Shown here piece after piece: positions 16,596 through 17,368 of a DNA stretch of 18,616 bases. Below the pieces are notes generated by a model. That model saw nothing but the letters and a program-made list of their open reading frames with translations, searched no databases and was not told the origin of the DNA. Each line of letters opens with the position of its first letter. The first letter of the stretch is position 1. The DNA is from a virus (Duplodnaviria > Heunggongvirae > Uroviricota > Caudoviricetes), in the IMG/VR virus record IMGVR_UViG_2711768037_000018, positions 1 to 18,616 of that record. One strand, written 5' to 3'. The position numbers were made by a program, and so were the translations under genes.

Positions 16596-16639
16596 TTGCC
16601 TGATTTGCAGGTTCGATTCCCTATTCGGAGATAGCACTC

Positions 16640-16840
16640 ATGCAACACGAACTACAGCCTGATTCACTGGTTGATTTGAAATTCATCATGGCCGATACTG
16701 GCTTCGGTAAAACCTTCATCTATGACCGGATTAAGTCCGGGGACCTGCCTAAAGCCAAAGTTATCCACGGGCGAGCAAGATGGTTATATCGTGACCATTG
16801 TGAATTCAAAAATAAGCTCTTAAGCCGCGCCAATGGGTAA
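16640..16840 (+). CDS. AlpA-family DNA-binding protein / putative excisionase
   Basis: 66 aa; ADTGFGKTFIYDRIKSGDLPKAKVIHGRARWLYRDHCEF resembles AlpA/Xis-type HTH proteins; GGAGA SD. Confidence 0.7.
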   Translation: MQHELQPDSLVDLKFIMADTGFGKTFIYDRIKSGDLPKAKVIHGRARWLYRDHCEFKNKLLSRANG

Positions 16841-17368
16841 AATAGCGGGTAAAATTTTTTTCACATCTAAAAAACACCATTCCAATCAATCCCCTGCCGC
16901 TTCAAGTAGATGTCTGCAGGGGACACCAGATACCCTTCAAACGAAATCTACCTTCACCCCGTAAAAGATAGGTTTGGCAGCACACTTGCCTTATATCTAC
17001 TCATTTTTACTGCAACAGGTTGAAATCTCAGCACTGTCAGAAAGCGCTGATGACTAAACAGCCCTGGGCCGGGCGATGTAACCATCACACAGAATCCTGA
17101 TAGCGAAATATGGCGTGACTCGATACTTCACTCCGCAATGCATTCCTTGATGAATTCGCAGGACCGTGATACACGGGACAGGTCGCTGAATGACGACAAT
17201 GTCCTGGAAATCAGCGAACCGCGCATCTGAAGTACATTTGAGCGACTGTACCAGAACATGAATGAGGCGTTTGGATTAGGTGATTATTAGCAGGGCTAAG
17301 CACTTTAGTATTATTATTTTCCGGTTGAGGGATAGGGAGATATCGACAACAACCGGAAAAGTTTACGT

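Follow-up and report, generated by a model that had tools for sequence, protein, structure and literature searches.

In the KplE1 (CPS-53) prophage of E. coli K-12, studied by Panis, Mejean and Ansaldi, the site-specific recombination module reads attL-intS ... torI-attR, an arrangement that is conserved in HK620, Sf6 and CUS-3 (PMC2951348, PMC3509656). TorI is the recombination directionality factor (RDF) of this prophage (PMC3509656, PMC2951348) and is identical to HkaC of HK620 and gp18 of Sf6 (PMC3509656). The integrase promoter overlaps attL, and in modules of this type int and xis are not placed on one induced transcript (PMC2951348). The published KplE1 core comprises 16 nt, CTGCAGGGGACACCAT (PMC2951348), and a 135-bp attR, for which the sequence of the attR-IHF2 primer was given, recombines in vitro (PMC3509656). 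The pentamers published for TorI are GTTCG, GATCG and GTCCG.

Comparison of the locus with described systems

We analysed a stretch of viral DNA of 18,616 nucleotides, here called the window. Its right end is very probably the attR of a prophage of the HK620/Sf6/KplE1 type in argW, with torI at attR and intS at attL. It is a textbook example of attR in the argW-specific IntS/TorI module, the layout of which is already known and published. Judged from annotated relatives, the remainder of the window is a P22-like (Lederbergvirus) prophage with lysis, late-regulation, replication, immunity and early-left regions. The phage is a new mosaic, because not one genome in the E. coli collection covers at least 80% of the whole window. 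The features of the right end are as follows.

16415..16582, + strand: last early-left prophage gene, encoding a 55-aa hypothetical protein (ORF list; annotation of relatives)
16572..16591, + strand: intrinsic-terminator-like hairpin and T-run, just upstream of the recombination module (terminator scan)
16605..16620, + strand: TTGCAGGTTCGATTCC, an exact 16-nt copy of argW nt 46-61; not the crossover site
16640..16840, + strand: torI (= HK620 hkaC = Sf6 gene 18), excisionase/RDF, 66 aa (66/66 against PDB 1Z4H)
16817..16836, + strand: attR-IHF2 primer site, left end of the 135-bp attR substrate (exact 20/20 match)
16834..16856, + strand: two direct GGGTAAAA repeats (16835-16842 and 16847-16854), overlapping the torI stop codon
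16841-16928: phage P arm, 88 bp, with GGGTAAAA repeats, CCCCTGC element and core
16891..16922, no strand: inverted repeat CCCCTGC-N18-GCAGGGG (left arm 16891-16897, right arm 16916-16922)
16914..16928, + strand: attR core (crossover region) CTGCAGGGGACACCA, equal to argW nt 61-75
16929..17368, no strand: host argW-cscB intergenic spacer, 440 bp (synthetic attB matches in prophage-free genomes)
17099..17221, + strand: weak match to a degenerate N-terminal fragment of the DUF4942 family (PF13708, E = 1.7e-4)
17369..18616, - strand: host gene cscB, sucrose permease of the LacY family (Pfam LacY_symp, 3.4e-193)

KplE1 has the identical TorI, the identical core and the same target, argW. It also shares the P-arm sequence, with the attR-IHF2 primer site in it, as well as the position of torI against attR and of intS against attL. 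The two differ in that KplE1 is a 10.2-kb defective remnant beside dsdC, whereas the window holds a complete lambdoid early region, is followed on its host side by cscB and carries G instead of T after the core. HK620 and Sf6 (Lederbergvirus) share 98.5-98.7% DNA identity with the window from about 16531 to 16928, together with the gene order, arm repeats, core and upstream T-arm 16-mer. Unlike the window, which is a recombined attR, these phages have the attP of a free phage followed by the P' arm and int, and their early-left genes upstream differ because of mosaicism. CUS-3 (CP000711; from E. coli K1 RS218) is 98% identical over 16400-16620 and is likewise integrated at argW, but the ends of its record are set by the T-arm 16-mer, and it contains neither torI nor the true attR core.

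The lambda-type int-xis module shares with the window a tyrosine integrase, a small winged-helix RDF and IHF, and stands where this module stands, at the end of the early-left operon; relatives exchange the two types at ~16600. In the lambda type the two genes are adjacent and attP lies beyond int, whereas in the type seen here attP separates xis from int.

Position of the junction

Three independent lines place the junction at 16928|16929: the end of argW, the end of free-phage homology and the empty site. The core CTGCAGGGGACACCA at 16914-16928 is the last 15 nt of tRNA-Arg argW, which in related strains ends …AATTGCAGGTTCGATTCCTGCAGGGGACACCA. Free phages, among them HK620, Sf6, Kapi1, N7, HF4s and IME10, are 96-99% identical to the window until 16928, where the homology stops. 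The same 15 nt correspond to sites annotated in phage records, as the attP core in HK620 and Sf6, as attR in phiv205-1 and as the integration site in Kapi1. A synthetic empty site, made of argW plus window positions 16929-17400, was searched against E. coli genomes; it was recovered as a single piece with 100% identity and 100% coverage in many that are prophage-free, and 2,625 genomes matched it at a coverage of at least 80%. The preliminary description had proposed a prophage/host junction in this part of the window, and this is borne out, with host DNA from 16929. The comparison with the uninterrupted locus that it suggested points the same way: in prophage-free strains argW is joined straight to 16929 onward.

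The sixteenth base of the core is here a host G, not T, and the identity is thus 15 nt rather than 16 nt. With the flanking bases, the attR of the window reads GATGT-core-GATACCC, attP reads GATGT-core-TTTATCAG, attB reads GATTC-core-GATACCC and attL reads GATTC-core-TTTATCAG. The attP junction of an excised circle would read …GATGTCTGCAGGGGACACCATTTATCAG…. Relatives that share the junction include decayed remnants, such as one of ~12 kb (L001); the copy in the window may still be able to excise.

The 16-mer upstream of torI belongs to a different part of argW, namely the end of the variable loop, the 5' strand of the T-stem, and the T-loop with 2 nt beyond it. By our own arithmetic, the chance of an exact 16-mer match anywhere in 18.6 kb on both strands is ~9e-6. 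In tRNA numbering it abuts the core copy (nt 61-75), and in the window it lies 293 bp upstream of the core with torI between. The T-loop 11-mer GGTTCGATTCC that had been pointed out lies, as described, at 16610-16620. No intact tRNA accompanies it, again as described: ARAGORN found 0 tRNA genes in the window, and argW nt 46-61 are the only tRNA portion upstream. A search of 16300-17500 against Rfam at permissive E-values gave no tRNA and nothing near a gathering score, and the matches look like chance.

Location of the integrase

Between torI and the permease there is no integrase ORF on either strand. This had been noted for the stretch ahead of the convergent LacY-like gene, and both the ORF list and Pfam agree with it. 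In the HK620 and Sf6 records the order is xis (hkaC or gene 18), attP, int, and because attP lies between them, xis and int are parted on integration. The lysogens LR-31 (L001) and MS20674 (L002) carry tRNA-Arg and intS at one prophage end and torI beside cscB at the other. The presence of intS at the argW end in these relatives therefore argues that no integrase was deleted.

On this basis the recombination cycle can be proposed in outline. The free phage would carry early-left genes, terminator, torI (xis), attP and intS, in that order. IntS would exchange strands within the 15-16-nt identity CTGCAGGGGACACCA(T) common to attP and the 3' end of argW. The attL site would receive intS, its promoter, the P' arm and the TorI sites, beside a reconstituted argW, and attR would receive torI and the P arm with its GGGTAAAA repeats, CCCCTGC element and core. 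Excision would recombine attL with attR and would require IntS, IHF and TorI. The left prophage end would then carry argW, attL (…GATTCCTGCAGGGGACACCATTTATCAG…) and intS, and the integrase would be expected ~20-25 kb past the left edge of the window. We infer that the unseen left end of this prophage still has intS.

Host sequence beyond the core

The host gene cscB is convergent to torI, and the window ends at its ATG start codon. RefSeq labels the permease either 'cscB: sucrose MFS transporter' or 'oligosaccharide MFS transporter'. In the lysogens LR-31 and MS20674, cscB is followed by a csc kinase gene, cscA, the gene of a LacI-family regulator, a truncated dsdX and dsdA; all are host genes and none encodes an integrase. 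The 528 bp from torI to the permease (16841-17368) had been described as non-coding DNA. The length stands, but the stretch is not a single unit, since it consists of the 88-bp phage P arm and 440 bp of host spacer. Among ORFs of at least 50 aa, the gap holds that at 17280-17492 alone, which overlaps the end of the permease and has no Pfam match. The DUF4942 match in the spacer reaches 21.8 bits against a Pfam cutoff of 25 bits and is therefore sub-threshold. A 'DUF4942 domain-containing protein' is annotated at the position corresponding to 17099-17221 in some RefSeq genomes, one of them with an empty site. An older island at the argW hot spot may have left this fragment behind.

Alternative explanations of the junction

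The lack of an int ORF between torI and cscB could be taken to mean that int once followed xis and was lost, leaving the 528 bp as debris. Adjacency of xis and int in classical lambdoid modules, as in the mosaic relative L007, would also fit such an integrase-deleted remnant, which was one of the readings offered in the preliminary description. Counter to this, the 440 bp right of the core are normal host spacer, 100% identical in prophage-free genomes, and the 88 bp left of the host DNA are the P arm of attP, which is intact and has 96-98% identity to free phages. In addition, this family keeps attP between torI and int, so that int lies across attP from xis in the HK620/Sf6 type and at the argW end in relatives. 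We consider a deletion here extremely improbable. Nor do relatives reveal an integrase with an att repeat past 18616, which had been raised as a way in which the boundary might prove to lie elsewhere; there the csc genes run on to dsdA. Another reading would make the 16-mer at 16605-16620 the real att core, or a relic of it, and would leave torI outside the prophage. The 16-mer repeats argW nt 46-61 exactly and in direct orientation, and the CUS-3 record marks the same 16-mer as the attL and attR cores. Yet free phages carry torI and run ~293-308 bp past the 16-mer before homology to the lysogen ends, and the attR substrate used in vitro begins 197 nt downstream of the end of the 16-mer. In none of 5,426 E. 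coli genomes is argW nt 1-61 joined to torI, and synthetic junction queries found the corresponding torI-less circle junction in no phage. In K1 strains that match the right end of CUS-3 at 100% identity, the supposed 'attR core' is followed by torI, the true core and then host dsdC. Finally, the attP flank beside the true core has, in relatives, an in-register degenerate T-loop of its own. The 16-mer thus has next to no prospect of being the crossover site, and the proposal that the T-arm 11-mer is an att core or relic does not hold; the core is CTGCAGGGGACACCA at 16914-16928, which had been noticed earlier only as the arm of a hairpin.

With attR ending at 16928 as the preferred reading, it can still be asked whether a second, older integrative element also has its edge at this junction, the csc cluster or the argW-proximal spacer being a decayed island. 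This would add to the attR explanation and does not compete with it. The weak DUF4942 fragment at 17099-17221 points that way, as do the genes that follow torI, which vary by lineage (csc here, dsdC-dsdX in IHE3034), and the truncation of dsdX beside the csc genes in L001. Arguing in the opposite direction, no further argW-derived repeat of at least 9 nt was found to the right of the core, either in the window or around the csc genes of L001 and L002, no integrase lies near the csc genes in those two loci, and the DUF4942 match falls under the curated Pfam cutoff. We regard an older element edge as improbable. For the earlier suggestion of such an edge, the support is weak and indirect, namely the sub-threshold fragment.

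Organisation of the P arm

The GGGTAAAA repeats occupy the position of the 'attP' repeat_region of HK620 (L003 2800-2822) and are invariant in the relatives among Erwinia and Klebsiella phages. In Salmonella phage g341c and Erwinia phage phiEt88, GCGGGCATAAA repeats stand in their place. These repeats are probably the IntS arm-type sites of the P arm.

The hairpin with a 7-bp stem that had been reported in the gap is present as an inverted repeat, with coordinates that need shifting by 2 nt and with its right arm inside the tRNA-derived core. As DNA it folds at -8.9 kcal/mol (z = -2.6, a moderate value). Both arms and their 18-nt spacing are invariant in five aligned phages and are kept in g341c and phiEt88; the left arm CCCCTGC varies in some genomic relatives. 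Covariation cannot test the structure, because the arms do not vary together. The inverted repeat is likely to be part of the protein-binding architecture of attP.

The g341c (L115 2200-2460) and phiEt88 (L116 2205-2470) loci are distant xis-attP-int modules that have an argW-type core together with CCCCTGC-N18-GCAGGGG. In phiEt88, CCGATGTAACC repeats are present where RDF sites of the GTTCG type would be. Arm and RDF specificities appear to have diverged in these two phages while the core target stayed fixed.

Conservation of the T-loop-like motif

The sequence (A)GGTTCGATTCC(C), identical to the argW T-loop, lies 18-27 nt upstream of the xis start in a range of lineages: E. coli, Serratia, Edwardsiella, Pantoea, Salmonella phage g341c and Erwinia phage phiEt88. 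GGTTCGATT is invariant in 8 lineages in which third-codon positions of xis are 59-62% identical, and the columns flanking it are 34-46% identical. Of the synonymous columns, 9/39 are invariant, and nine in a row would be expected at ~2e-6. GTTCGATTCC is kept in nine of ten lineages, with xis identity as low as 39%. In g341c (~51% TorI identity) and phiEt88 (39%), AAGTTCGATTCCC and AGGTTCGATTCCC are found ~20 nt before the xis ATG, and the motif thus persists in both despite changed arm-type repeats. The part that matches argW differs in extent, being nt 46-61 in E. coli, 49-63 in Serratia and 51-63 in Pantoea. These differing flanks in each lineage suggest that the ancestral tRNA-derived sequence was longer.

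Several other relatives lack the motif, among them Klebsiella phage Chronis, Erwinia phage Ehr49, Tatumella, Rouxiella and a Pantoea clade, and in Dryocola it has undergone an apparent clean deletion. Because several relatives lack it, the motif is dispensable. In Erwinia phage Midgardsormr38 (L008 1783-1815) the excisionase gene is preceded by two copies in tandem, CACAGGTTCGATTCCCG and TCAGGTTCGATTCCCA, whose starts are 16 nt apart.

From the pattern of conservation, one might suppose that selection maintains the T-loop-like motif as a cis-element of the xis-attP-int module and that it is not a decaying att relic, an idea that we hold tentatively and with more doubt than confidence. The sole other non-coding element that is as conserved is the crossover core, and because only the core matches its conservation, the motif may be read by a recogniser of the tRNA gene. 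We speculate that it could be an isolated core-type site of the integrase, resembling the B arm of attB, that lets Int gate the expression of xis. The motif also contains GTTCG and resembles site I4 (GGTTCGCTTC), so judged by its bases a TorI operator is possible. This option is weakened by phiEt88, in which the motif is present and the TorI-type GTTCG pentamers are absent from the P' arm.

A structural role was considered as well. A T-arm-like RNA hairpin or SD-sequestering structure was set aside, since on manual pairing the stem varies among relatives; RNAalifold gave only -2.0 kcal/mol, with negligible covariation. A weak SD-sequestering RNA element is a further possibility for the role of the motif. 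We also tried the idea of a split tRNA 3' half, in which torI would have been inserted in 30 nt of tRNA homology, and found it weakened by the flank of the core, which has an in-register TTCGAT in most relatives. Neither the 16-mer nor a role for the motif appears in the open-access literature that we searched.

torI and the upstream sequence

The AlpA/Xis-like gene of the preliminary description is indeed an excisionase. All 66 of 66 residues of this small ORF are identical to PDB 1Z4H, the 'Tor inhibition protein', and RefSeq names the ORF at 16640-16840 torI in thousands of E. coli genomes. Its Pfam match to HTH_17 is sub-threshold only. A scan of viral contigs for TorI returned identical copies only and carries nothing on divergence. 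The KplE1 literature calls the torI promoter 'non-characterized', and our promoter scan found no sigma-70 promoter upstream of torI in 16590-16640. We did not adopt the cII/pI site of the HK620 record (TTGC-N5-TTGC), as its second TTGC varies among relatives. Menouni and colleagues (PNAS, 2013) reportedly described transcription termination in the control of torI expression.

A short ORF at 16833-16964 (+ strand), which corresponds to HK620 hkaB and to gene 17 of Sf6, begins within the torI stop region. It crosses the att core into host DNA, so that attP and attR give it different C-termini. This ORF is unlikely to be a real gene.

Upstream, the last early-left gene (16415..16582) has no Pfam match and is a hypothetical protein in L001 and L002. 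It is common to CUS-3 and many lambdoid phages, and its region is 97-98% identical in DNA to CUS-3, HK140, 2B8 and Stx phages until ~16602. Mosaic breakpoints cluster right after the terminator-like hairpin, at ~16590-16608. In the K-12-like locus L012, upstream homology begins at ~16590. PS_131_S11 (L007) has the same early-left genes followed by an adjacent excisionase-integrase pair of the lambda type beside torS, and its homology to the window stops at ~16600-16608. The module from ~16600 rightwards is therefore an exchangeable cassette.

Integration modules are swapped directly after the terminator that ends the early-left genes (window 16572-16608; L007 ~25360-25400). At this place L007 has TTGC-N6-TTGC (CII-type) where the module of the window has TTGC-N5-TTGC entering the T-arm motif.

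Annotation of related prophages

The junction itself is biologically nothing new, and the conserved T-loop copy that precedes torI is a modest oddity. For annotation, a prophage end with 'xis without int' is the normal attR in phages of the HK620/Sf6/KplE1 type. The true boundary is the 15-16-nt repeat of the argW 3' end downstream of torI, not the T-loop copy upstream of it. That copy is a practical trap and has already given a truncated record, that of CUS-3, in which the attL and attR cores are the T-arm 16-mer (L005 3206-3221, L006 1-16). In IHE3034 (L011 3942-4142), torI follows a right end identical to that of CUS-3 and precedes dsdC. The CUS-3 GenBank record is ~300 bp short.

Prophage callers often trim at the torI stop codon. 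Many IMG/VR provirus contigs (L036, L037, L040 and others; length 2201) stop exactly there and so miss the 88-bp P arm and the att core. Two short contigs binned to non-enterobacterial metagenome-assembled genomes, L016 (labelled Actinomycetes) and L031 (labelled Parachlamydiaceae), contain torI modules with 85-92% identity to the protein of E. coli. The argW-type core is retained in L016, and the upstream sequence of L031 matches that of the Citrobacter locus L018. Both look like contamination or mis-binning.
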